The translations under genes and the position numbers were made by a program. DNA of 11,881 nucleotides from a virus (taxonomy: Duplodnaviria; Heunggongvirae; Uroviricota; Caudoviricetes). The notes below the pieces were generated by a model. The model was not told the origin of the DNA and did not search any database. It worked only from the letters and a program-made list of their open reading frames with translations. The stretch covers positions 1 through 11,881 of IMG/VR virus record IMGVR_UViG_2579778791_000016. The stretch is one strand, 5' to 3'. Shown in pieces: positions 1 to 11,881 of this stretch. The stretch's first letter is position 1. Each line of letters opens with the position of its first letter.

Positions 1-199
1 CCTCATAGTCGTCTTCGCTATCGCCATCAGGCACATCGTTTTTACTTCTCCTCAGATACGATATGTAAAAATCGCGCCAGGCATCCAGATCCAGTTGCCC
101 TCGCTTATTCGATATCGGGGCACCCGGCAATTTCTGCAATCTGCGAAGCTGGCGATCGGTCAGACTTAAATGCCTGGCAACTTCAGTCTGCGTAGCCAC
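1..199 (-). CDS. Terminase small subunit (Nu1-like), N-terminal part only; the gene continues beyond the window start
   Basis: Minus-strand frame opens with GTG at 199..197 preceded by an AGGTGAGGA Shine-Dalgarno and an in-frame TGA. Translation (M)ATQTEVARHLSLTDRQLRRLQKLPGAPISNKRGQLDLDAWRDFYISYL has the winged-HTH pattern of lambda Nu1 (lambda: KKQLADIFGASIRTIQNWQEQGMP). The start lies about 185 nt from cosN, as in lambda. Not in the ORF track because it runs off the window. Confidence 0.5.
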   Translation of the reverse strand, partial: MATQTEVARHLSLTDRQLRRLQKLPGAPISNKRGQLDLDAWRDFYISYLRRSKNDVPDGDSEDDYE

Positions 200-246
200 T
201 CCTCACCTCGCAAAAACTCTCACCTCACAATCACAACAAAACCGGT

Positions 247-345
247 CATGTCCGGTTTACATGTCTGTTTTTTGTTCATGTCCGGTTCACAGAAGACCTG
301 TTTTTATATTTTTCATATAGTTAACTTGAAGAGAAACCGGACATG
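247..345. other. cosB-like terminase binding region: three copies of the 11-mer CATGTCCGGTT (247-257, 277-287 direct; 335-345 inverted) between cosN and the terminase small-subunit start
   Basis: Exact 11-nt repeat seen three times, two direct and one inverted. The position and arrangement mirror the lambda R-sites, but the sequence differs from lambda cosB. Confidence 0.5.
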
Positions 346-382
346 GATCCCGGAAAATTTTCATAAATAGCGAAAACCCGCG

Positions 383-394
383 AGGTCGCCGCCC
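383..394. other. cosN cohesive-end site (12-nt GGGCGGCGACCT on the minus strand)
   Basis: Minus strand reads GGGCGGCGACCTCGCGGGTTTTCGCTATTTATGAAAATTTTCCGG, matching the lambda left end as recalled for about 45 nt. The flanking 400-560 region also resembles the lambda right end (e.g. TTTACGTTAAGTTGA...ATCAATTAAT). Confidence 0.65.
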
Positions 395-905
395 CGTAGC
401 CTGCCGGATCGCCGGAAAGGACCCAATAAAATGATAATAATTATCATTTATATAAATACCATCACACATCCCACGTACACCATAAAACCACGACAAATAA
501 TCAATTTTGTCCAAGTCATGCATTAATTGATCTGTGTCAACTTAACGTAAAGACATCTTAAGACAATACAAATCAGCAGCACTGAACACGGAAAAACACA
601 ATGTCATCAAAAAATAAAGCTTCCCAAACCAGATGATTAATCAAATCCATATTGCCCTTGAACGTAAGGGATCGGGTAATTTTTCGGCATGGGTTATTGA
701 AGCCTGCAGGAGAAGGCTGGCAACAAATGCAAAGCACCTGCGCCCGGCCAGCATGAAAAATAACGAGAAATGAACGTTCGGTTACAGGAACCGGTAGCTA
801 CTGTCTTCTAACAATATTTCATCTTCATATCCGGCGAAACAAGACTTTACCCTGCAGGGATGTACTGAATAGCAACAGAGTGATAATTAACTTCTGATAA
901 AATAA

Positions 906-1232
906 TCAGGGTGCTGAAGGACTAAAGATAAATGTTTTCTTCACGCCTTTACGCGGCTTGTCCTTCTCAAATCGCCATTTTGCCATCGCCTTTACAACCT
1001 GCTCATCAAACAGATGGTGCGGCTCTGAACGGATAAACTCAATTCGGGTGACAGTACCATCAGCACCAATATCAAACTTCACATCAACCCGTCCCTTTAT
1101 ATAATTTGCCGCGGCATAGGCCGGATATTGTGGTAATGCCTTAACCAACTGTCGAGGCATATCTGTTTTATGTTGCGTACAGCCCATAACCAAAGAAGAC
1201 AACAAAATAATTAACGGAAGATTTCTTTTCAT
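906..1232 (-). CDS. Lipoprotein with a TonB C-terminal-like domain (accessory gene)
   Basis: ORF 906..1247. Probable start is the ATG at 1232 (MKRNLPLIILLSSLVMGC, a signal peptide with lipobox and Cys) preceded by GGGA. The C-terminal half YPAYAAANYIKGRVDVKFDIGADGTVTRIEFIRSEPHHLFDEQVVKAMAKWRFE fits the TonB_C pattern (YP..A...GxV.V.F.I...G.V..I.I..S.....FD..V..A...WRF). The alternative ATG at 1247 has no Shine-Dalgarno. Confidence 0.6.
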   Translation of the reverse strand: MKRNLPLIILLSSLVMGCTQHKTDMPRQLVKALPQYPAYAAANYIKGRVDVKFDIGADGTVTRIEFIRSEPHHLFDEQVVKAMAKWRFEKDKPRKGVKKTFIFSPSAP

Positions 1233-1252
1233 TTTTATTCCCGGCATAGATA

Positions 1253-1269
1253 AGAATAAGTCTTATTCT
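1253..1269. promoter_or_regulatory. Perfect 8-1-8 inverted repeat AGAATAAG-T-CTTATTCT in the 5' leader of the TonB-like gene; candidate operator
   Basis: Seen directly in the sequence, 21 nt upstream of the ATG at 1232. The AT-rich hexamer-like arms are loosely reminiscent of a Fur box but are not a match. Confidence 0.3.
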
Positions 1270-1907
1270 AACAATGCAGCCCTGTCGGTCATCAATCCTC
1301 TGCTTAATGGCAATGACAATTATCCGACTTAAATCACAAATCAGACACATGACATAACAGAGCTTGCGAGGTAACACATCGTCCGGTTTCTTCCACCATC
1401 GCACCGGACCAGCGACCATGAGGGGACAACGCCGCGCTCCGTTAACACGGTAAACCCCGGTGTGTATCGTTTTTGATTATCCCCGCACACTCGCGCAGAG
1501 GAGTCTCCCTCTCGGGCTGTGGTCTCTGTTGATGCGGGAATACGGCGACGATACAGTGCATAGTTATGTCAGGCTAAAATGCCTTTATCAAATCTGGGTA
1601 ACGCAATCTGCCATTGTTGGCTCCGGTTGTGGTGATGATGTCAAGCAAGCCCATCTTGACTATCTCAACTAGTCGATTCATGACATATGTCACATTTATA
1701 CCAACCAGATCATTGCGTTGAGTTTACAACTCAATAATTCTTGGTTGGACGTCAAGTTTTGACGGTATTCGGGTGGCAGTTGATAGCAATCTTGGAACCG
1801 TCCACCTAATAGCTGCTTGTGTGGCGTTTAAATTGTGGAGTGCTCGCAACAGAACTTTTCTTTCTTGTTTGCGAGCGATGTTTAGCAACTTTTAAGAGAG
1901 TTAAGTC

Positions 1908-2138
1908 ATGGAGTTTTTGAAAGAGCATCATTTGCCTTCAATAATTTTTGGAATTTTTTCCGCCATTTTTTGGATTATTTCATGTTTTGCATCTTCCAAA
2001 GAACACCCACCAAAAACGGAACAAGGCAGTTTCTCATCACTGGGTTGTTTTAAAGCCATTGAAATACAAAGTAAATGGAATAAACGGGCTGCTTTTTGCG
2101 CAGCGTTAGCTGTTCTTGCTCAAGTATTTAGCTTTTAG
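1908..2138 (+). CDS. Small membrane protein of unknown function (76 aa), opposite strand to the late operon
   Basis: ATG start with a weak GAGAG Shine-Dalgarno, hydrophobic segment LPSIIFGIFSAIFWIISCFA, and a strong intrinsic terminator immediately downstream. AT-rich. Occupies the position and orientation that bor has in lambda but is unrelated to Bor. Confidence 0.4.
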   Translation: MEFLKEHHLPSIIFGIFSAIFWIISCFASSKEHPPKTEQGSFSSLGCFKAIEIQSKWNKRAAFCAALAVLAQVFSF

Positions 2139-2155
2139 TTTCAAAAGTGTAAATC

Positions 2156-2192
2156 AGAACCACTCGTATAGCGGGTGGTTCTCTGTTTTATT
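2156..2192 (+). terminator. Intrinsic terminator (11-bp stem, 5-nt loop, then CTGTTTTATT); probably bidirectional, also ending the late lysis transcript
   Basis: AGAACCACTCG/TATAG/CGGGTGGTTCT hairpin with one G-U pair. The plus strand has a T-run after it; the minus strand has a partial U-run (UGAUUUACACUUUUG). Confidence 0.55.
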
Positions 2193-2254
2193 CGTGTTGC
2201 GACTAAAACTAACTAAAATCACGCATATGAAAGATAATGGGAAAATTATCGCTA

Positions 2255-2692
2255 TCATCGAAGGCATTGCGTCCTAATGTACTCCTGCAAGTAGTTAACC
2301 TGCGCGGTTATCCTGTCGATTCCACTTCGGAGACGGTAATAATTGAGTTCAGCATCTGCTGTAAGTCCTGGGGTTTCTCCATTGCCCATGCCGCTGGCTC
2401 CGGTCGTTGACTTTGCACAGGTGGCGGCGACTTGCAGGCGCTTACGCCCAGCAGAAACATCAGCACGGAGACTTTCGATAGTCGCATTAGCATCAGCAAG
2501 CTCCTTTGTGTATCTGGCGTCAAGTTCTGCTACATCACGTTGCCGCTTCTGCATATCAGCGATGATGGATGTGGCTTTATCGCGCTGCTCTTTGTAGGCG
2601 ATGGCGTTATCACGGTAATGATTAACAGCCCATGAAAGGCAGACGATGAGGCAGATGACCAGAACGTAGATAATCGCGGTTACTCTGCTCAT
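2255..2692 (-). CDS. Rz: Rz i-spanin (inner-membrane spanin subunit)
   Basis: Translation [31 protein letters not shown]...[11 protein letters not shown] is close to lambda Rz as recalled. The start ATG at 2692 overlaps the R stop (ATGA). The ORF-track start at 2704 is four codons upstream. Confidence 0.85.
2308..2493 (-). CDS. Rz1: Rz1 o-spanin lipoprotein, embedded in the +1 frame of Rz
   Basis: [41 protein letters not shown]... has a lipobox plus a proline-rich stretch like lambda Rz1 (VVGCTSK...PPPPPAW). Lies wholly inside Rz in another frame. Start chosen at the ATG at 2493; ATGs at 2487 or 2523 are alternatives. Confidence 0.75.
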
Positions 2693-3186
2693 TGTTGCCC
2701 CCACAAACAGACTTCACGCTCAATCTCACGGCGAGTCATCAGCCCTTTCCATTGCTTACCGCCAGCGTATGTCCAGCGCCGTAGCTGATCACATGCGCCT
2801 TTGATATCGCCCTGGTTTATTTTGCGAAGAAGCGTCGATGTTCTGAAATTGCCAGCGCCCACGTTGTAAACGAACGAGTAAAGAGCGCCGCGCGTTGTTT
2901 CCGGTATATCGACGTTGATGTACGGGTTTATTTGTCTGGCGACCGTGGCAAGGTCTTTATTCAGGAGGGCTTTGCATTCTGCTTCGGTATACGTTTTACC
3001 GGGCATGATGTCTTTTCCGGTGTGTCCGTGACATACAGTCCATACGCCAACGATATCTTCGTATGGTATGTAGCTGACACCTTCCAGGCCATCGTCACCA
3101 CTCGGACCAGTGATGAGCACAGACGCTATGGCAACAGCCCCACCACCAATAGCAGCAGCAACAGCCTTGCGTAATGACGGCGACAT
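2689..3186 (-). CDS. R: SAR endolysin (phage-21-type lysozyme with N-terminal signal-anchor-release domain)
   Basis: [30 protein letters not shown]... has a Gly/Ala-rich SAR helix followed by a lysozyme domain, and is near-identical to phage 21 R as recalled. Start overlaps the S stop (TAATG). Confidence 0.9.
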
Positions 3187-3392
3187 TATTCACCTCTCGC
3201 AGCCTTACGCTTATCTTCTTTAATCTTGAAATAAAGGTTTGTCAGATACGTCAGCAGGCCAAACAGCAGACTCCCCAGCACACCTATTGCCACCCACTGG
3301 GACGGAGAGACTTTGTCCAGCAGCTGCAGTAACCAGTATCCCGTCCCCACCGCTGACGTGGTGTATGACACACCTGTTGTGATTTTTTCCAT
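3186..3392 (-). CDS. S: Pinholin (class II holin, S21-like)
   Basis: [68 protein letters not shown] has two transmembrane segments and a basic C-terminus, closely resembling S21-68. GGAG Shine-Dalgarno 10-14 nt upstream. No in-frame upstream start, so no dual-start antiholin is apparent. Confidence 0.85.
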
Positions 3393-3435
3393 CTGATGTA
3401 TGTCTCCGTCACCGCCGACAGAAAATGAAAGTAAA

Positions 3436-3473
3436 GAAAAACAAAAAAGCCGCCAGTGTCACCCACTGACGGC
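3436..3473 (-). terminator. Intrinsic terminator 44 nt upstream of the holin start codon
   Basis: Minus strand GCCGUCAGUG-GGUGA-CACUGGCGGC (10-bp stem with one U-G pair) followed by UUUUUUGUUUUUCUUU. Confidence 0.6.
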
Positions 3474-3648
3474 CAACGCCGGGAGCCGTGATTATGGCAT
3501 TCAGGCTCTGCTAAAAATGCCAGATAACATTCCGGCCAACCCCTGATTCAGGTTATAAATGACACAATATCTTGACAACATCCGTCACTGTCTGTCAGAA
3601 AATGTACTGCCAAGTATAAGTATCATGTGAAGTACATCTACCCGTTTT

Positions 3649-3684
3649 AGCCAGCGTCCTTCAGAGTGGGCGCTGGCTTTTTTT
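3649..3684 (+). terminator. Plus-strand-specific intrinsic terminator abutting the nanS-p stop codon, antisense to the late operon
   Basis: Plus strand AGCCAGCG-(12-nt loop)-CGCUGGCU followed by UUUUUUUAUUAU. On the minus strand the same hairpin is preceded by an A-run and followed by AAAACGGG, so it should not terminate late transcription. Confidence 0.5.
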
Positions 3685-3685
3685 A

Positions 3686-5536
3686 TTATGCTGCCGGTGC
3701 ATTTATCTCCAGCACCAGACTTTCTATCTCAACACCATACGCTGCATTTTTGGTAATATCCGTCAGCGTCAGCGCATTCAGCCCCAGTGTCAGACTGTCT
3801 TTTATGACCTGGAATGCCGGGCCAGCCACTCCATTCAGTTTCGGAGTAACCGTGGCACTGCCGGCGGTGAACACCAGCTCCAGCGTCTGCCAGTCGTTAC
3901 CGTAATCGCCGAACTCCCCCAGCTTCGTGTTTCCGGCTTTCCTGTGATGCATCAGATTCACTCTGCCGTCAGTGGTCTGAGTGAAGTGCGACATCAGGAA
4001 CGGATTACCGGTACCCGTCATCGCCACACCATCAGGAACGGGAGCGTCCGTATACAGATAAATCCCCAGCCCGAACTGATTGTTGGTCAGTGCGCCTGAG
4101 AGGCGGAACTTACAGGTCAGTCTGCCGCCCTGTGTCAGCAGGGTAATTGCGTCATCCACCGGATGCATCAGGGACCAGGTTTTATTGCTCTGCTTGGTGA
4201 TCTTAAATACACCATCTGACAACTGAATTCCGCCGTCCTTAATGGTCCAGCCCTGCGCAGCAGCATCTCCGGCTGTCGGCATCAGGGAGATTGTGCGTAT
4301 GGATGCATCTTCAGACGGCCCCGATGGCGTGTTGCCGCCGGGCGAGGGTTTGATTTCCGGTGCCTTACCACTGATGAAGGCTGAGGTGCGCCCGGCTGCG
4401 TTCAGAATAGCGGTTGCCAGACGATCCGGAATAATGCTCCTGCGCGCCCATGAACTGAAATGTGTCGGGCGGTTTGATGATACCTGGTTTCCATTCGTTC
4501 TCGATGCCGCACCGTAATATCCTGATGCCGGAATATCCGGATCTTCTGCCGGCGCGTTAGTGGCGGTATTGACGCCGTTACCGTCTGTCATGAAGGGCAC
4601 AAAATAAACGCCCTCACTCTCCCTGTTTTTATACCCGCCGTACACGGTGTCGTACTGGGTAGCGTATGTATTTTTCCAGTAATACGTCGTGTCACCACAA
4701 ACCCACGGCACATCTGCAGCACTGCCACCATGACACTGCGCGTTAAACACAGAGAGGTCAGCACGAAACTGCGTCAGCATGGCTGTAAACAGCGCAGGTT
4801 GCTGTGCGTAGGTGGCGGCGCTCATGTCAAACTCACCCTGCATCCAGCAGACGGCCAGCAGAACGTTTTTGGGATTTTTCTGCAATGCCGCTTTTGTGCG
4901 GGAAATCAGATCCTGATATAACGGCTTGCCCACCCCCCAGCGTGCCGAATCCTGACTGGCCCCCGTGGACTCGCTGAATGTCCCCTCCGCGCCCTGGGTA
5001 AATGCCGAACCACCACGACAGCATGGTACCAGCAGGATCCCCGCGTTATTCGGGATATACGGGAGCAGTTTTTTGGCAATATGTAAACCCTGACCGACAC
5101 AGCCGTACTGCCCTTTGCTCAGGTCAGCCCTCGGATGATTCAGCGTACTCATATCCTGCACATCATGCAGACAGTGGTCAGCCGGAATAATATCGTTATA
5201 TCTGCAGGCAGCCCCGCCCGGCGTCACTGTACTGCGGCGCGCCAGCTGTTTAATGCGCGGATCCGGAGCATCGTATGAATCCGGCAGCGGAAGCCCTTCA
5301 CCGTAAGCCATGGCATTGGACTGCCCGGCCAGTACGATGACGTAGTACCAATCCGGCTCAGATGAAGGGCCGACCTGTGCCTCTCCTTCAATAGCCACCG
5401 CCTGCATCAGTGTGTACGGCGTAATGGCAACCGGTCCGCCGTATGGCTGCCAGCCCTCTTTCAGTTTGTGTGTCAGCTTTTCCGCAAGGTCTGACGGCGA
5501 CGCCGCCCTGACAACATCGTAATGTTTAATCGACAT
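3686..5536 (-). CDS. nanS-p: Prophage sialate 9-O-acetylesterase (NanS-p / YjhS-like; N-terminal DUF1737-like region plus SGNH/SASA esterase domain)
   Basis: 616-aa ORF with ATG at 5536 and GGGAGA Shine-Dalgarno. Contains the SGNH block-I motif VIVLAGQSNAMAYGEG. Sits immediately upstream of the lysis cassette, as the nanS-p genes of Stx and related lambdoid prophages do. Confidence 0.75.
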   Translation of the reverse strand: MSIKHYDVVRAASPSDLAEKLTHKLKEGWQPYGGPVAITPYTLMQAVAIEGEAQVGPSSEPDWYYVIVLAGQSNAMAYGEGLPLPDSYDAPDPRIKQLARRSTVTPGGAACRYNDIIPADHCLHDVQDMSTLNHPRADLSKGQYGCVGQGLHIAKKLLPYIPNNAGILLVPCCRGGSAFTQGAEGTFSESTGASQDSARWGVGKPLYQDLISRTKAALQKNPKNVLLAVCWMQGEFDMSAATYAQQPALFTAMLTQFRADLSVFNAQCHGGSAADVPWVCGDTTYYWKNTYATQYDTVYGGYKNRESEGVYFVPFMTDGNGVNTATNAPAEDPDIPASGYYGAASRTNGNQVSSNRPTHFSSWARRSIIPDRLATAILNAAGRTSAFISGKAPEIKPSPGGNTPSGPSEDASIRTISLMPTAGDAAAQGWTIKDGGIQLSDGVFKITKQSNKTWSLMHPVDDAITLLTQGGRLTCKFRLSGALTNNQFGLGIYLYTDAPVPDGVAMTGTGNPFLMSHFTQTTDGRVNLMHHRKAGNTKLGEFGDYGNDWQTLELVFTAGSATVTPKLNGVAGPAFQVIKDSLTLGLNALTLTDITKNAAYGVEIESLVLEINAPAA

Positions 5537-5620
5537 CGAATTTCTCCCGTGTAGAGGAACAGAGTTAAAAAGCCGGAAGCGGAATCAAATCACAGGATGA
5601 CCATCTGCCAGTGGCAGGTC

Positions 5621-5649
5621 ATAAAAAAAAGGCTGCGCAATGCGCAGCC
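5621..5649 (-). terminator. Strong intrinsic terminator upstream of nanS-p; likely 3' end of the upstream cargo unit
   Basis: Minus strand GGCUGCGCA-UU-GCGCAGCC followed by UUUUUUUUAU. Confidence 0.65.
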
Positions 5650-6078
5650 AGAACTCACAAGGAAAATGATAAAAGGAATAACACTAGTGATGTACGCATG
5701 GCGCCTCCCGCTAAGTTCTGCAATGATCAAACAGAACTCGCTACGTGCCCTTAAAACTCGATCATTTAGCCCCTCCAAGGAGGATTCACCATGCGGTTGA
5801 TTTTTTAATAAACAGTAAACAAAAAAGTCAAGAATTATTCATTCTGTTCTTTCATCATCGGCCACAGCAATACCACAATGCCGCAGACCAGAGCGCCATC
5901 AGTCAGTACCAACATTATCCTGCTGGTGAAATCCATCATCACCATCACTAAAAGCAGGATCACAACAGCAAGCAGACACAGTTTATAAAACAATGTTCAG
6001 AAAACGCATTCAGCATGCCTAAGGTTCTATTCCTACGAATAGCCAACTTGCAACTTAAAATATTATTTATGCAGCCAA

Positions 6079-6795
6079 TTAAATTCTGGTCCTTACAATA
6101 TCAACCTGAAGATTCTTATCTTGTGCTGATTGATAAATGACAAACCTTTTACTACCTGCATTGAAAGAAGTAGACAAAACCAGACAATTATCATAACGAG
6201 CAAGAACATAATACCAACCATCATTATAATTAATCATTTCATATTCTTTCTTAAACTGTGGTTTGTAATATCCTGTCAGAAATGAAAAAAGCCAAAAATA
6301 TGCCACAAAAGCAATCATCACAATCTCAAAAAAATGTTTTTTTATAAATGGCTTATCATAGAAGCATGATACCGATAAAAATCGCCCATAAGATCTTATC
6401 GAAATTGTAACCGCCAGCGCAATCGCTGCTGACAGTAGCAAAAGAGGTACCTGAATCTTCTGTCTCAATATAGAAAACTCAATAATTGCCGGCACAAACA
6501 ATAATTCCACAGCAAAATAAAGGCGAAATACATTTAGCTCTTGCATAGAATGTTTTCTTTTCACTGCGAAAAAGAATACAACACCAATACCCCAACCGAT
6601 AAGAAATATAGCAATGACGATAACTGCAAAAAATAAACTTCTGGCAACATCATCAACACCTGCACCTACAATCCACCATGGGAAGCCGTAGTAAAAAGAA
6701 GTACCCCATCCATAGAAATAAGCACTCCCCCATCCAAGGCATCCCATGTAGGCAATAAAAAGTGAAGAACTCCTGAGCAGCGCACCATCCTTCAT
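6079..6795 (-). CDS. Uncharacterised polytopic membrane protein (about 5 predicted transmembrane helices plus a roughly 65-aa C-terminal soluble domain); AT-rich cargo gene
   Basis: Only long ORF in a markedly AT-rich block (track 6079..6837). Hydrophobic segments include LFIAYMGCLGWGSAYFYGW, LFFAVIVIAIFLIGWGIGVVFFFAV, FRLYFAVELLFVPAIIEF, LLLLSAAIALAVTISI and IVMIAFVAYFWLFSFLTGYY. Probable start is the ATG at 6795 (MKDGALL..., GGGGTGG upstream), because the first ATG at 6837 lies inside a promoter-like -10 element. No recognisable family. Confidence 0.6.
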   Translation of the reverse strand: MKDGALLRSSSLFIAYMGCLGWGSAYFYGWGTSFYYGFPWWIVGAGVDDVARSLFFAVIVIAIFLIGWGIGVVFFFAVKRKHSMQELNVFRLYFAVELLFVPAIIEFSILRQKIQVPLLLLSAAIALAVTISIRSYGRFLSVSCFYDKPFIKKHFFEIVMIAFVAYFWLFSFLTGYYKPQFKKEYEMINYNDGWYYVLARYDNCLVLSTSFNAGSKRFVIYQSAQDKNLQVDIVRTRI

Positions 6796-6832
6796 AACCA
6801 CCCCAATACAAGATGATAACATTGGCTTACAA

Positions 6833-6862
6833 CTCATAACAAAAGCAATTCAATGCCGTCAA
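6833..6862 (-). promoter_or_regulatory. Candidate sigma70 promoter of the membrane-protein cargo gene (TTGACG-N18-TATGAG)
   Basis: -35 TTGACG at 6862..6857, -10 TATGAG at 6838..6833, between the Q-proximal terminator and the gene. Judged by eye only. Confidence 0.3.
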
Positions 6863-6933
6863 GAGGTTACAGGCTAAAAAAACTCTATTACATAGCAGCC
6901 AGCATGTTTACCGTACAAGTACAACTCAGGGCA

Positions 6934-6961
6934 TAAAAAAAACCCACTCGGCAGCGGGTTT
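6934..6961 (-). terminator. Intrinsic terminator about 45 nt downstream of the Q stop codon (candidate tR')
   Basis: Minus strand AAACCCGCU-GCCG-AGUGGGUUU (G-U wobble in stem) followed by eight U. The plus strand also has a partial T-run after the hairpin. Confidence 0.65.
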
Positions 6962-6994
6962 ATACATTTTTTACAACATACCAAATTTGCATGA

Positions 6995-7023
6995 AGTATA
7001 TGGCTTTTAATCCAGTTTTGCAA
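6995..7023 (-). promoter_or_regulatory. Near-consensus sigma70 promoter overlapping the 3' end of Q (candidate late promoter pR' with qut)
   Basis: TTGCAA (7023..7018) - 17 nt - TATACT (7000..6995) on the minus strand. The Q stop codon (7009..7007) lies inside the spacer. A -10-like TGGTATGTT sits in the initial transcribed region. Confidence 0.45.
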
Positions 7024-7696
7024 TATTTTGCTGTAAAAATGCTGCCTTTTGTTTTGAACGTGTTCTCGTCACAAGCAATAAAGCATCACTATCAAGCTGT
7101 AGAAAAATGTGCTTCATTGCAACCCAGCGTTCAGTAAATGTCTCGGACCAGTTTTTTGTTGTCACTCCCACCAATGATGCCAGTGTCTGGTATTCATAGG
7201 CCTCACGCCCTGCAAGTTCGCTCTTCACATCCTGTGCAGCCAGCCAGATTAACGTCTTCAGGCGATCCAGTGTCTTACCTGCAATTTTTCTGTTACTTAA
7301 CAAATCTTTAAACTCGCTCCATGCCCATTGCGTTATGGTGACCTGATGCCCCCATCGAACGCTTTCGCTGTAACACCAAAGCAACCATGCTTTCTGATGT
7401 TCATCGAGAGACAAAACCGCGCGGCGCCATGAAGAGGTTGAGAATTCAACCGGGCTGACCAAAGCAATGGATGAACCTTTTGCGTACGACTGCTTACCGG
7501 AAGTCGGCGTATTATCCCGCGTAATCATCTTGCCAGTTACCACATCCAGAATGCGCGGCTTCTTTCGTTTGTATGTACCAGTATCAAATTGTGCATGCTC
7601 CTGCCAGGCTTCGAGCTGGCCTTTCGTTGCTCCGTTCAAGTCAGCAGTAGCTGCCATAAGTTGCTCACGAACATACTGTAAATATTGGGTATTCAT
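7007..7696 (-). CDS. Q: Q-like late antiterminator (long-form Q family, about 230-250 aa)
   Basis: Positioned after ninI and before the late/lysis genes, with a promoter and terminator at its 3' end. Start taken at the ATG at 7696 (MNTQYLQYVREQ..., AGGA Shine-Dalgarno 8 nt upstream) rather than the track start at 7780. Family assignment rests on context and size, not on recognised motifs. Confidence 0.5.
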   Translation of the reverse strand: MNTQYLQYVREQLMAATADLNGATKGQLEAWQEHAQFDTGTYKRKKPRILDVVTGKMITRDNTPTSGKQSYAKGSSIALVSPVEFSTSSWRRAVLSLDEHQKAWLLWCYSESVRWGHQVTITQWAWSEFKDLLSNRKIAGKTLDRLKTLIWLAAQDVKSELAGREAYEYQTLASLVGVTTKNWSETFTERWVAMKHIFLQLDSDALLLVTRTRSKQKAAFLQQNIAKLD

Positions 7697-8172
7697 GCAG
7701 TAAATCCTTTCTATATTTTGGCATAATTCTTCAACATTCGGTAATCGTTCAAAACCGAATCGGGGAAACGACATAAGCACAGGAGCCCCCAGCGACAGCG
7801 AAGGAGTTCTGATATATAAGACTCAGACATCATTCATTCCCCGGTTCTCCAATATCTGTTTCACTCATCATCCATAACTACCTGTAATTGCCCCCCCTTT
7901 TTTTGTAACAGTTCTTATATTGCTATATAGAATAGCCATTACTAATGCATTTAAATTTAATAAAATAAAAATTATAAAAAAACATAAAACACCACGCAAA
8001 CACACTTAATAAAAACACCGTTACATTAAAAGATAATAAAAACCACAATAAAAAACAAATAAATCAATTGTCTCACGCAATTATAAAACATCATATTGAT
8101 TACGCACCTTGTATTACAAACTCATGTATGTAAAATACGCGCACCATTCAAAAAAAAGGAAGACAATAACAT

Positions 8173-9132
8173 ATGAAAAAAAGTGTCATCGCTGGCGTCT
8201 TTATTGCTCTGTCATTTACCACGTGTTCAGCTATCGCGAACAGCCTTGCATTATCATTAGCAAATGATGATGCAGGGAAGTTTCAACCAATACTTAATGA
8301 TATTTATGGCAATAAACATGAAAACAGAGATGATTACTCACAAGGCTTATTTCTGGGATATAGCCACGATATCTCAGACTCGAGCCAATTATCTCTCCAT
8401 ATTGCGCAAGATATTTACTCTCCATCAGGCAGTAATAAAAGACACAACACAGCCGTAACTGGAGACAGAGCTTTTAGTGCATACACTCACACTGGTATTG
8501 AATGGAACTCCCTTGCGAATGACTGGATTCGCTATCGATTAGGTACTGACATAGGTGTTGTTGGCCCCGACGCAGGCGGTCAGAAAGTACAAAATAAAGC
8601 TCATGAGATTATTGGGGCAGAAAAATATCATGCATGGGATGATCAAATAGAGAATCGCTACGGTTATACTGTAAAAGGGATGCTATCCATGACACCAAGT
8701 ATGGATATTTTAGGTGCTAATGTTGGATTATACCCTGAAGTTTCTGCTGTTACTGGAAACTTATTTCAATATGTAGCATATGGCGCAACCATTGCCATTG
8801 GTAATGATAAAACCTTCAATTCGGATAATGGCTTTGGTCTGCTGGCTCCCCGTGGTTTAATGCATATGTCCGATACAAGCGGATTCAAATACAAGATTTT
8901 TGCAGGTATGGAAAGACGAGATGTCAATCGCAACTATACTCTCGAAGGAAAAACAATACAGACGAAACAAACAACAGTATCGCTAAACAAAACTGTTGAT
9001 GAATATCAAGTTGGCGCAACAATTGGGTATGCACCTGTAGCCTTCACACTAGCATTTAATAAAGTAACATCAGAATTCAAGACAGGGGATGACTATTCAT
9101 TTATAAATGGAGCAATCACCTTCTTTTTTTAA
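8173..9132 (+). CDS. lpxR: Outer-membrane beta-barrel protein, probably lipid A 3'-O-deacylase LpxR family
   Basis: Signal peptide MKKSVIAGVFIALSFTTCSAIA, predicted mature size 296 aa (the size I recall for mature LpxR), C-terminal aromatic beta-barrel signature ...GAITFFF, AAGGAAG Shine-Dalgarno. AT-rich gene with a long AT-rich upstream region, opposite in orientation to the flanking phage genes. Confidence 0.55.
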   Translation: MKKSVIAGVFIALSFTTCSAIANSLALSLANDDAGKFQPILNDIYGNKHENRDDYSQGLFLGYSHDISDSSQLSLHIAQDIYSPSGSNKRHNTAVTGDRAFSAYTHTGIEWNSLANDWIRYRLGTDIGVVGPDAGGQKVQNKAHEIIGAEKYHAWDDQIENRYGYTVKGMLSMTPSMDILGANVGLYPEVSAVTGNLFQYVAYGATIAIGNDKTFNSDNGFGLLAPRGLMHMSDTSGFKYKIFAGMERRDVNRNYTLEGKTIQTKQTTVSLNKTVDEYQVGATIGYAPVAFTLAFNKVTSEFKTGDDYSFINGAITFFF

Positions 9133-9161
9133 CTGAATTGAATTCAATCAAAATAACATAA

Positions 9162-9214
9162 GTCCAACAAAAACATAAAGTGCGAAATGAATGCCAGCTC
9201 CATTTATTTCGCAC
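9162..9214 (-). terminator. Intrinsic terminator in the ninI-lpxR convergent intergenic region (minus-strand orientation)
   Basis: 14-bp stem GUGCGAAAUGAAUG/CAUUUAUUUCGCAC (one G-U pair) with a 7-nt loop, followed on the minus strand by UUUAUGUUUUUGUUGG. Confidence 0.5.
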
Positions 9215-9343
9215 TATAAAAGATTAAAAGTTGCAATAAAATAATAAAATGACTCAGTTACGAAAACCAATAAACTGTGGCCAGTAGTGAGTCGCTCATC
9301 ATCGGGCTTTTTGGCGAATGAAATTTAGCTACGCTTTCGAGTC

Positions 9344-10009
9344 TCATGCGCCTTCTCCCTGTACCTGAATCAATGTGAGGTTTCCGCAGAACACTGCGCC
9401 AGTATCGATATACATCTGGTTGGCAAATTTGAGTGGTTTCACTGCTGGCGTATGACCAAAGATGAACGTGTCCGCGCCTTTGATTTCTTTCACGATCCCG
9501 TCTTGTGAGTTGCTGATTCGTTCGCGGTTCCAGATTACCTGCTGATGATCAACTGGCTTTCCAAACTCGTATTTATCACAAGGATAATCGGCGTGGCAAA
9601 TGACATATTTTTTATCTTTGCTCACCAGTTCGATGATTAACGGAAGTTCTTCTGCTTTATGGGCAAGAACTTTAGCCAGAGTCTCTTTGTCGTAATCGAG
9701 ATTAAAGAACCAGCCACCGCCATTAAGCAGCCAGTGATTAACGTTTCCACGCTCTGATAAGCCATCAATCATCATTTGCTCATGGTTTCCACGCACAGCT
9801 CTGAACCAGGGGAATGTGATTAATTCCAGACATTCGACGTTCTCTGTACCGCGATCAACCAAATCGCCAACCGAGATGAGCAGGTCTTTTTTGGTGTCGA
9901 ATCCAATCGTATCCAGTTTGTTCATCAGGTTCGTGTAGCATCCGTGCAGGTCGCCAGCTACCCAAATATTTCGGTATTTGCTGCCATCAATTCTTTCGTA
10001 GATATTCAT
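9344..10009 (-). CDS. ninI: Ser/Thr protein phosphatase (lambda NinI / lambda-PPase homologue)
   Basis: 221 aa with metallophosphatase motifs GDLHG, GDLVDRG and GNHE; near-identical to lambda phosphatase as recalled. Start overlaps the ninG stop (ATGA). Confidence 0.9.
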
Positions 10010-10620
10010 GCAGCCTCACTTCTGCTGTTTCGCAGGTCTTTGAGTTTCTGTTGGTACTCTGCCTTGATCGCCTTGCACTCTTCGACAGTCCAGCGATGGC
10101 GGTTATGGTTTGATTCGATTTCGTCTACTGCTTCCTGCCTGATGCGGCTAATCAGTTCGACGCGATACGGAACGAGATTTCCGCTTTTGTGCTGGTTGCA
10201 CACCACGCATTGCTTGTGAATATTGCGTTCATCAAATCGGAGTTGAGGTGCCGCAGCAGTTGTCCGGTAATGTCCGGCATCCCACTGAGCAGACGTGAGC
10301 GTTCCGCACGAGATACATGGTAAGTCGCGGTCTCTTTCTCTGATGAAGGCGTTTACGGCTTGTTGGGCTTGTTTAATCCAGTAACTGCGGGGCTTTAAGG
10401 CGAGTTTTCGAATCTTAAGTTTATCTTTCTGTTTCTGCTCCTCTCGTCGTCGTTTCTTCTCTGCTGCTTTTTCCGCTTTTTCGCGTTCTTTACTTCGTCG
10501 TTCGAGTGCTATCTTGGTTCCACACTCTGGAGAGCACCACCACTGATTAGCGAATGCAGGGTGAAACCATTCCCGACATTCATCGTTTTTACATCGTCTT
10601 CGCGCTGGTTTAGCCATCAT
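10006..10620 (-). CDS. ninG: NinG / Rap recombination-associated protein
   Basis: 204 aa, [34 protein letters not shown]...; near-identical to lambda NinG as recalled. Confidence 0.9.
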
Positions 10621-10780
10621 CTTCTTCCTCGTGCATCGAGCTATTCGAATCGCTCATCAGCTCTGCACAGCAGTGCTCACACACGTGAACTTCCAGCACA
10701 TGCAGCTTCTGACCGCAATTAGCGCACGTTAAAGCCCGCTCGACGCTTTCTTGTTCGTAACTTCGATTTGGGTCAATCAC
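10610..10780 (-). CDS. ninF: NinF
   Basis: ...[43 protein letters not shown]...EEEDDG matches lambda NinF. Probable GTG start at 10780 overlaps the ninE stop (GTGA); the track ORF extends upstream to 10822. Confidence 0.8.
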
Positions 10781-10959
10781 CTTGTATTCCTCGCACGATG
10801 TCTTAGCCACCGGATATCCCACAGGTGAGCCGTGTAGTTGAAGGTTTTTACGTCAGATTCTTTTGGGATTGGCTTGCGTTTATTTCTGGAGCGTTTCGTT
10901 GGAAGGTATTTGCAGTTTTCGCAGATGATGTCGGTGAAACTTCGTCGTTGTCGCCTCAT
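10777..10959 (-). CDS. ninE: NinE
   Basis: 60 aa, [60 protein letters not shown], near-identical to lambda NinE. ATG overlaps the upstream stop (ATGA). Confidence 0.85.
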
Positions 10960-11415
10960 GTCGCCCTCCTGACGCCCTGCCCGATCGCCATCAATGCCGC
11001 TTTGGATACGATAGTAAACATCCGTCGAGGACTAATGAACGGTCGCCAAATCAGCAGCATGGAGCCTTTGCTGTTTCCCTTCTTCTCCAGCCCTGTCGAT
11101 GGTTCGATAAAATTAATCCGTCCATCAGTGATAATACGAACTTCGTCAACACTCTCCAGAGCCTTGCTGAACCATCCGACAGACATATCCTCTGGCACAA
11201 GCATCACTACCGTCTGTCGCTGTTGTATGCACTGCTCAGCGGCTTTTTCCACCCACGGCCTGATATTGCTGTACGGTGGGTTATTCCAGATTGCACCGTG
11301 GCTTATCCACTCAGAATTTAGCGCGTCGTCAGCCTCAGTTAGCCAGTGAGCGCACAGAGCGTTTTTGTCGCTCGCTGCCGAATCCAGCCAGAATCCAAAC
11401 TCAATATCCAGTGCA

Positions 11416-11866
<451 letters not shown>

Positions 11867-11881
11867 TTTATGGTCACTTTT

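Follow-up and report, generated by a model that had tools for sequence, protein, structure and literature searches.

The window analysed here is the whole stretch of 11,881 nucleotides of the virus record IMGVR_UViG_2579778791_000016 (IMG/VR, positions 1–11,881), and it constitutes the right arm of a 434-type lambdoid prophage, reading on the minus strand, with 99.3% identity to phage 434 (OL657226) over 3645–11784. Between the late antiterminator gene Q and the nanS-p-type esterase gene, in the slot equivalent to that of the Shiga toxin genes (stx), it carries an AT-rich gene (6079–6795, minus strand) for a 238-residue protein of the TfpB/STM1630 family that is predicted to reside in the inner membrane. 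The gene belongs to a self-contained accessory moron cassette and is no part of the phage machinery for replication, morphogenesis or lysis. It is annotated in the classic phage 434 and is a member of a curated family of unknown function, and is therefore not novel as an object but an already catalogued accessory gene; the original prediction, made from the letters of this stretch, had correctly spotted what is an ordinary moron of unknown function in the stx-equivalent slot. New here are a predicted, conserved promoter belonging to the gene itself and a repeated linkage to the lipid A deacylase LpxR.

The inferred protein is 100% identical to CPT_434_68 of phage 434 (UMO75332.1), a putative membrane protein by its annotation, and to RefSeq WP_001302581.1, which is listed as a hypothetical protein. 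It matches the entire 222-position profile of PHROG 1521 (function unknown) with E = 2.1e-154, and Pfam PF27470 (TfpB) is assigned to the identical protein and to all 103 homologues, an assignment that is precomputed, the model being absent from the local Pfam copy and not re-scored. TfpB of Moraxella bovis shows 27% identity by tblastn over residues 9–236 (E = 7e-20), and the architecture shared by the family, with about 236–250 residues, an N-terminal AY.YGWG...G.PWW patch, five helices and a C-terminal beta domain, is present in the alignments. The protein had been described as unplaceable in any family, which does not hold in view of PHROG 1521, PF27470 and the annotated phage 434 gene. 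The protein had no significant match in Pfam-A (local copy), NCBIfam or PADLOC, and when the 64 family members were all scanned against Pfam at E ≤ 10 only scattered noise came up (DUF2070 in 21 members with E of at least 0.14, bPH_10 in three and TraS in one). In the literature nothing relevant was found on TfpB, tfpQ, DUF3927, PF27470 or phrog_1521, and usable papers only for STM1630 and TfpY. The locus was found in 678 of 5426 complete E. coli genomes at a coverage of at least 80%, or about one in eight, and of 50,697 phage records only three carry the gene, the phages being 434 and 2B8. A profile search of 1.84 billion representative proteins returned only 70 matches, indicating that the TfpB family is small, and the organisms are all animal-associated Proteobacteria, namely Enterobacteriaceae, Pasteurellaceae, Neisseriaceae and Moraxella.

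The open reading frame (ORF) is intact and was listed as 6079–6837 on the minus strand, with 252 residues. Nearly all of the 103 homologues are 236–238 residues long and start at the equivalent of MKDG, a Shine-Dalgarno sequence (GGGGTGG) is present only for the ATG at 6795, and the paralogue of enterotoxigenic E. coli (ETEC) begins at the equivalent position with a GTG codon. The coding sequence should therefore be 6079–6795, stop codon included, and not extend from 6837. Its G+C content is 36.1%, and 30% at third codon positions (GC3), to be compared with 46% for Q and 55.6% (GC3 61%) for nanS-p, so that the gene differs in base composition from the flanking phage genes. The claim of an AT-rich ORF between Q and nanS-p that is a distinct insertion by composition is thus borne out, the composition of the interval not being uniform. 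In eight pairwise comparisons the ratio of nonsynonymous to synonymous substitutions (dN/dS) was 0.05–0.18, and the gene is under strong purifying selection; together with the synteny in three Salmonella enterica subspecies this shows that it is a real gene and not a chance ORF.

The accessory nature of the region is illustrated by phage 434B, a clear-plaque derivative where DLP12 quuD and nmpC::IS5 replace Q82, the TfpB-like gene, DUF3927 and nanS, and where tblastn gave no match to the protein. Phage 434B was propagated as a plaque-forming phage like the others, and the gene is consequently dispensable for lytic growth. The Q-to-lysis interval is filled differently also in 933W-type prophages, and the description of accessory, compositionally foreign cargo in the Q-to-nanS-p interval of a lambdoid prophage agrees with these observations. 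The window has a separate and complete lysis cassette of holin, signal-anchor-release (SAR) endolysin and Rz, and the TfpB-like protein has no Pfam or PHROG match to the holin, antiholin or spanin families.

The Q gene (7007–7696, minus strand; Pfam Phage_antiter_Q, E = 2e-90; RefSeq annotates a 690-nt version) is of the phage-82 type, its 3' end being 93.9% identical to phage 82 Q. A pR'-like late promoter found by consensus scan, TTGCAA-17-TATACT (6995–7023, minus strand), overlaps its stop codon and is assigned by position. It is followed by an intrinsic terminator at 6961–6933 on the same strand, with a 9-bp stem and a U8 run (-13.3 kcal/mol, z = -3.7), which is annotated as a terminator in phage 434. 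The established lambdoid layout is a Q gene, pR' with the Q-utilisation site, tR' and the late genes. Since the hairpin comes after a pR'-like promoter directly downstream of a phage-82-type Q it should be tR', and it would consequently give no insulation, the TfpB-like gene being the first to be read by the Q-modified RNA polymerase, like stx. The terminator that had been proposed after Q is thus real as a hairpin with a U-run, but by this layout it would belong to the late operon and not insulate the cargo. A hairpin and folding scan gave no terminator between the TfpB-like ORF and the gene for a DUF3927/TciB-like small membrane protein of 52 residues (5835–5993, minus strand; Pfam PF13064, E = 3.4e-14; PHROG 1470), and judging from this arrangement the two are probably co-transcribed. 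The cassette is closed by a strong intrinsic terminator (5649–5623, minus strand) with an 8-bp stem of seven GC pairs and U8 (-15.9 kcal/mol, z = -4.0). A downstream terminator was accordingly placed correctly as to its existence, but it follows DUF3927 and not the TfpB-like ORF, and the cargo, taken to be a single ORF, contains two genes. The 3' part of a doubtful 62-residue ORF (5590–5778, minus strand), which the phage 434 record lists as a putative membrane protein, contains this hairpin, and the ORF, which had no family match in the NCBIfam and PADLOC scans, may be spurious.

A candidate promoter of the gene itself, P1 (6833–6862, minus strand), has TTGACG at 6862–6857, an 18-nt spacer, TG at 6841–6840 and TATGAG at 6838–6833. 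An overlapping alternative, P2 (TTGTTA-18-TATCAT with an upstream TG; 6813–6842, minus strand), came from a consensus scan and is less conserved in the paralogues. In six lineages the start codon is preceded, at a distance of 66–70 nt, by the motif TTGAC[GT]-N15-TGn-hexamer; an ETEC plasmid and a chromosomal island are among them, and in two of the six, a 933W-type prophage and the iro island, the upstream DNA is otherwise not alignable. The window and the ETEC plasmid share a conserved stretch of about 70 nt ahead of the start codon, beyond which everything differs. By this comparison the gene is predicted to carry its own conserved extended -10 promoter. The σ70 promoter suggested earlier is supported insofar as a promoter-like motif is conserved and travels with the gene, while its score in the single sequence is weak.

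Hydropathy indicates about five transmembrane helices and a small C-terminal domain, and an AlphaFold2 model built from 64 diverse homologues (pLDDT, the predicted local distance difference test, 77; pTM, the predicted template modelling score, 0.70) agrees with this, as the original prediction had stated. An earlier model from 34 close homologues was too poor for use (pLDDT 58). The helices of the model span residues 3–36, 47–78, 89–111, 116–136 and 155–181, and are followed by a five-strand domain of about 55 residues (184–235). The loops 79–88 and 137–154 are rich in Lys and Arg and lie on the same side of the membrane, so that by the positive-inside rule the N-terminus should be inside and the C-terminus outside, and the beta domain would be periplasmic. 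The following residues are shared by 80% or more of the 64 members: S10, S11, A15, A25, Y26, Y28, W30, G31, G37, P39, W40, A51, R52, R91, P102, F167, G175, Y195, L198 and F218. They cluster in helix 1, with the two Ser at the N-terminal edge, and in the first loop predicted to be periplasmic (AY.YGWG...YYG.PWW..., R52); helix 4 and the loops are highly variable, and the helices are glycine-rich. No catalytic set of His, Asp, Glu or Cys is found among the residues conserved across these members, and because polar catalytic residues are not conserved a non-enzymatic binding or gating role is suggested. Foldseek gave nothing at E ≤ 0.001 against PDB or BFVD, and a profile search of all PDB sequences gave no match. 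Weak PDB matches of the C-terminal part were to SH3/Sm-like barrels and MscS-family channels. An MscS-like channel was considered from the weak matches to MscS, YnaI and MSL10 and a '[FY][RK]P...EY' junction, and was rejected, as hhalign against E. coli MscS gave a probability of 0.07 and no family member matches the MscS Pfam model.

Relatives of the protein are found in many unrelated contexts, in each as a single gene, indicating that the TfpB-like gene works alone. DUF3927 accompanies it only in close Escherichia lambdoid loci, and was for that reason rejected as an obligate partner. The locus had been called stx-equivalent, which is supported by a 68%-identical paralogue in the stx2 slot of 933W-type prophages, where the order is Q, methylase, tRNA-Met, tRNA-Lys, TfpB, LpxR, nanS-p and holin. 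In these prophages (loci L043–L045, 3700–7000) cargo for modification of lipopolysaccharide (LPS) replaces the toxin, and L044 adds a PmrD homologue. An E. coli paralogue with 59% identity lies on ETEC plasmids, 870 bp from eltAB and divergent from it; on the plasmid copies L034–L038 (~2987–5714) the gene for heat-stable enterotoxin b (STb) is about 3 kb away. The Shigella paralogue (57% identity) is present on 106 Shigella plasmids, including pWR501 at 135269–135985, and on the invasion plasmid (pINV) it is annotated as hypothetical with insertion sequence (IS) elements all round. Another paralogue of 57% identity is located next to iroBC. The Salmonella copy (46% identity) is found beside sseJ and is STM1630, as confirmed by a published deletion primer encoding NSSMLLAYLGGLGWG; the copies of S. 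enterica subsp. diarizonae and arizonae occupy the same syntenic site, and so does the chromosomal copy of C. rodentium (66% identity). The gene has been retained across the three S. enterica subspecies and C. rodentium with a dN/dS of about 0.06.

Further away, a Yersinia copy comes directly after Q and a C. freundii copy after tail-fibre genes, a distant Klebsiella/Enterobacter branch is found at prophage ends between the SRAP gene and umuDC, and the copies of Pasteurellaceae and Conchiformibius (Neisseriaceae) lie among housekeeping genes, that of A. actinomycetemcomitans adjoining a PAP2 phosphatase and polysaccharide genes. The Moraxella homologues (27–36% identity), the classical tfpB of the pilin inversion region, are placed between pilin genes beside an IS110-family Piv-like recombinase. 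This was seen in M. lacunata, M. equi and M. oblonga, and in the M. lacunata locus the homologue is enclosed by a truncated and a full pilin gene, the truncated one on the side of the recombinase. With only 39% identity, the E. coli paralogue that diverges most (L004–L006, 4300–6711) is carried by a Rep3 plasmid-like element and lies a short way downstream of an IS110-family transposase; IS110 is the recombinase family of the Moraxella Piv beside tfpB, and the resemblance may be a coincidence. On contigs labelled Klebsiella quasipneumoniae (L129/L130) a 54%-identical paralogue is flanked by an AraC-type regulator, a DsbA-like gene and an STb gene, close to a two-partner secretion locus, and this region is ETEC-plasmid-like. 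A 3-kb contig in a Veillonella metagenome bin has a 100%-identical copy together with DUF3927, and is most likely a binning error.

STM1630 has been described as a gene of unknown function bound by H-NS (Canals et al. 2019, PMC6785131, S1 Text). In strain 4/74 it is expressed in medium inducing Salmonella pathogenicity island 2 (SPI-2) and in macrophages, and in ST313 it is silenced by two single-nucleotide polymorphisms in its own, mapped -10 element (PMC6785131). It is not needed for growth in LB, and its deletion raises intramacrophage replication in 4/74 (PMC6785131), while transposon mutants are, according to the citation of Morgan et al. 2004 in the same paper, attenuated in calves and chicks. 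In one motility screen the deletion was hypermotile, 1.7-fold (PMC4219756). These data speak for regulation connected with infection rather than for phage defence.

The explanation we favour, to which we would give about an even chance, is that the TfpB-like protein is an accessory and non-enzymatic envelope factor of the inner membrane, its gene being transcribed in the lysogen from a promoter of its own and after induction by Q-dependent read-through, and of benefit to the bacterium in animal hosts. In the lysogen transcription would start from the extended -10 σ70 promoter about 65 nt upstream, which is probably kept silent by H-NS, like that of the Salmonella orthologue, as long as no stress or host signal lifts the repression. 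Once the prophage is induced, Q-modified RNA polymerase would start at pR' and read through tR' as it does for stx. DUF3927 would be co-transcribed, and transcripts from the gene's own promoter would end at the terminator 5649–5623. The protein might then bind or gate a partner in the envelope, rather than act as an enzyme, and in this way alter the envelope in some respect of importance to the bacterium in animal hosts.

Several observations weigh against this explanation. STM1630 is the only member of the family with experimental data, and its phenotypes are modest and partly inconsistent: a follow-up with unmarked deletions ascribes some effects of the motility screen to polarity (PMC4534456), and the attenuation in calves and chicks could be polar too, because the transposon mutants adjoin effector genes. 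Both promoter candidates are weak, with 9 of 12 consensus positions, promoter-like sites are no commoner than in shuffled sequence, and the Salmonella promoter, about 220 nt upstream, is not homologous to the Escherichia one. Finally, the host-associated distribution and the mobile contexts fit an anti-phage role equally well.

Such a role, where the protein is made in the lysogen and late in infection and keeps out superinfecting phages by stopping their DNA at the cytoplasmic membrane, or perturbs the membrane so that the infection is aborted, is in our opinion somewhat unlikely. It would explain an autonomous single gene in accessory hot spots of prophages (the Q-to-lysis slot, after tail-fibre genes, and the ends by umuDC/SRAP), and a polytopic membrane protein with a conserved periplasmic patch and highly variable loops and fourth helix. 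Type IV pili often serve as phage receptors, and the Moraxella member is encoded inside a type IV pilin locus; the neighbouring DUF3927 is in a PHROG labelled 'moron... resistance to colicin'. However, neither the protein nor its two downstream ORFs belong to any PADLOC-DB v2 family, and the match to the entry-exclusion protein TraS is weak and insignificant (E = 0.05, in one of the 64 members). The stable synteny in Salmonella and C. rodentium and the housekeeping surroundings in Pasteurellaceae and Neisseriaceae are unlike those of defence genes with their fast turnover, the Salmonella orthologue is induced under SPI-2 conditions and in macrophages, and the paralogues on virulence plasmids are found beside toxins and not in defence islands. 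A role in remodelling of LPS or lipid A, where the periplasmic aromatic belt and Arg52 would bind LPS or a lipid-linked glycan at the outer leaflet of the inner membrane, in partnership with LpxR in the outer membrane, is decidedly unlikely, although LpxR is adjacent or within 1.4 kb in the three closest clades and in three different arrangements. In the window the two genes are divergent with the Q module between them, in 933W-type prophages they are convergent and adjacent, with PmrD also present in one, and in the C. rodentium chromosome they are divergent and 178 bp apart. The identity of LpxR (73–75%) parallels that of TfpB (66–68%), the A. actinomycetemcomitans copy lies beside the PAP2 phosphatase and polysaccharide genes, and the conserved positions at what is predicted to be the periplasmic interface are taken by aromatic residues, Gly and Arg. 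Yet no LpxR is nearby in most clades (ETEC, pINV, the iro island, Salmonella, Yersinia, Klebsiella and Moraxella), and no similarity in sequence or fold to an LPS enzyme or transporter was found in the Pfam, PDB and Foldseek searches. The linkage may come from two AT-rich cargo genes being mobilised jointly, or from a functional connection with the remodelling of lipid A.

It is very improbable that the protein is an accessory to pilins or pseudopilins, aiding type IV pili or the type II secretion pseudopilus like TfpY/FimB. The Moraxella homologues are found between pilin genes next to Piv, and the ETEC paralogue sits beside the genes for heat-labile enterotoxin (LT), which is exported by a type II secretion system. 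TfpY-like proteins are also membrane proteins of about 235 residues with a periplasmic C-terminal domain (PMC11841053), but they have three transmembrane helices and a large periplasmic alpha/beta domain of about 140 residues (Qaderi et al. 2025, PMC11841053), compared with five helices and a beta domain of 55 residues here, and neither the window nor the surroundings of any enterobacterial, Pasteurellaceae or Neisseriaceae copy contain a pilin gene. Membership in the TfpY/FimB family was rejected on this published architecture. That the gene has a function of the phage itself late in infection, as the first gene of the late operon tuning the timing of lysis or the state of the membrane, for instance as a holin modulator, is likewise very improbable. 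It is positioned for this, directly after pR'-tR' and ahead of the holin-endolysin-spanin cassette, and its product is a membrane protein with glycine-rich helices. Against it, 434B grows without the gene, the complete lysis cassette is separate, most family members are found outside phages, and there is no similarity to holins or, by the hhalign comparison, to MscS-type channels.

A more general proposal is that the TfpB/STM1630 family consists of mobile single-gene effectors of the inner membrane in mucosal Gram-negative bacteria, which reshape the cell surface by means of the periplasm-facing aromatic/Arg patch, this patch binding a lipid-linked molecule or a subunit of a surface organelle (LPS or lipid A together with LpxR; pilins in Moraxella). 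We consider this unlikely as it stands; if true, the reshaping of the surface would alter innate immune recognition and the availability of phage receptors, and it would explain why the genes travel with toxin and effector loci (the stx slot, LT, STb, sseJ and pINV). The gene is of interest as a widespread one with no known function in any member, present in 434, a founding model phage, and in roughly every eighth complete E. coli genome; its paralogues lie on the Shigella invasion plasmids, near LT and STb of ETEC, and beside sseJ in Salmonella, all major virulence loci. One family now unites phage 434 gp68, STM1630, Moraxella TfpB and the LT-flanking and pINV ORFs. A phage 434 lysogen of K-12 offers a tractable setting, with 434B as a natural deletion control. 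Should the gene prove to act in surface remodelling or phage exclusion, this would be relevant to lysogenic conversion in enterohaemorrhagic E. coli, ETEC and Shigella.

The remaining genes of the window follow, according to Pfam, the order NinB, Dam, NinE/F, NinG (10620–10006), NinI phosphatase (10009–9344), LpxR on the opposite strand, YlcG, Q, the TfpB-like ORF, DUF3927, nanS-p-type esterase, class II holin, SAR endolysin and Rz. The LpxR lipid A 3'-O-deacylase gene (8173–9132, plus strand; Pfam LpxR, E = 6.8e-40) is a second AT-rich cargo gene with a GC3 of 31%. It is placed between a truncated Q fragment/NinI and YlcG-Q, and the region 7781–8172 upstream of it has 28–31% GC. The next late gene after the cassette, encoding a nanS-p-like sialate O-acetylesterase (3686–5536, minus strand; Pfam DUF1737, SASA and DUF6645), is intact with 616 residues as in phage 434, and is frameshifted according to RefSeq in E. 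coli O26:H11 11368 (4133–5997 there). The window departs from phage 434 to the left of about 2576, and a lipoprotein-like ORF of 113 residues (906–1247, minus strand) with a TonB C-terminal domain (Pfam, E = 2.7e-15) is found where phage 434 has the Bor/Iss lipoprotein. An Rfam scan of the window gave no RNA families.

Compared with known systems, the gene shows no substantive difference to CPT_434_68 of phage 434, which has the same slot between Q and the DUF3927 gene; the start deposited for phage 434 and in RefSeq is nine codons upstream (247 residues), and the homologues favour the form with 238. It occupies the same slot just after pR'-tR' as stx, in the manner of the late cargo stx and LT-II, and like the classic lambdoid morons bor and lom it has a foreign base composition and a terminator of its own; a promoter of its own is predicted. 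The TfpB-like product is, however, an integral membrane protein by prediction, and neither a secreted toxin nor an outer-membrane lipoprotein. Salmonella STM1630 is similarly an AT-rich, horizontally acquired single gene with its own promoter, encoding 238 residues and placed beside virulence genes (sseJ, steB), but it is chromosomal, syntenic across subspecies and outside any prophage. TfpB of M. bovis and M. lacunata, which gives PF27470 its name, shows homology over nearly the full length and the same layout of helices and beta domain in the alignment. It sits in the invertible pilin segment next to piv, in contrast to the gene of the window which has no pilin nearby, and it, too, is not known to have an assigned function. 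TfpY, TfpZ and FimB resemble the present protein in size, in the location in the inner membrane, in a periplasmic C-terminal domain, in being non-enzymatic and in having no relatives of known function detectable by HHpred. Their genes are always next to the major pilin gene, whereas in the TfpB family only the Moraxella members have pilin neighbours. By this loose analogy the TfpB-like protein may act in a comparable mode, as a membrane adaptor with a periplasmic domain.

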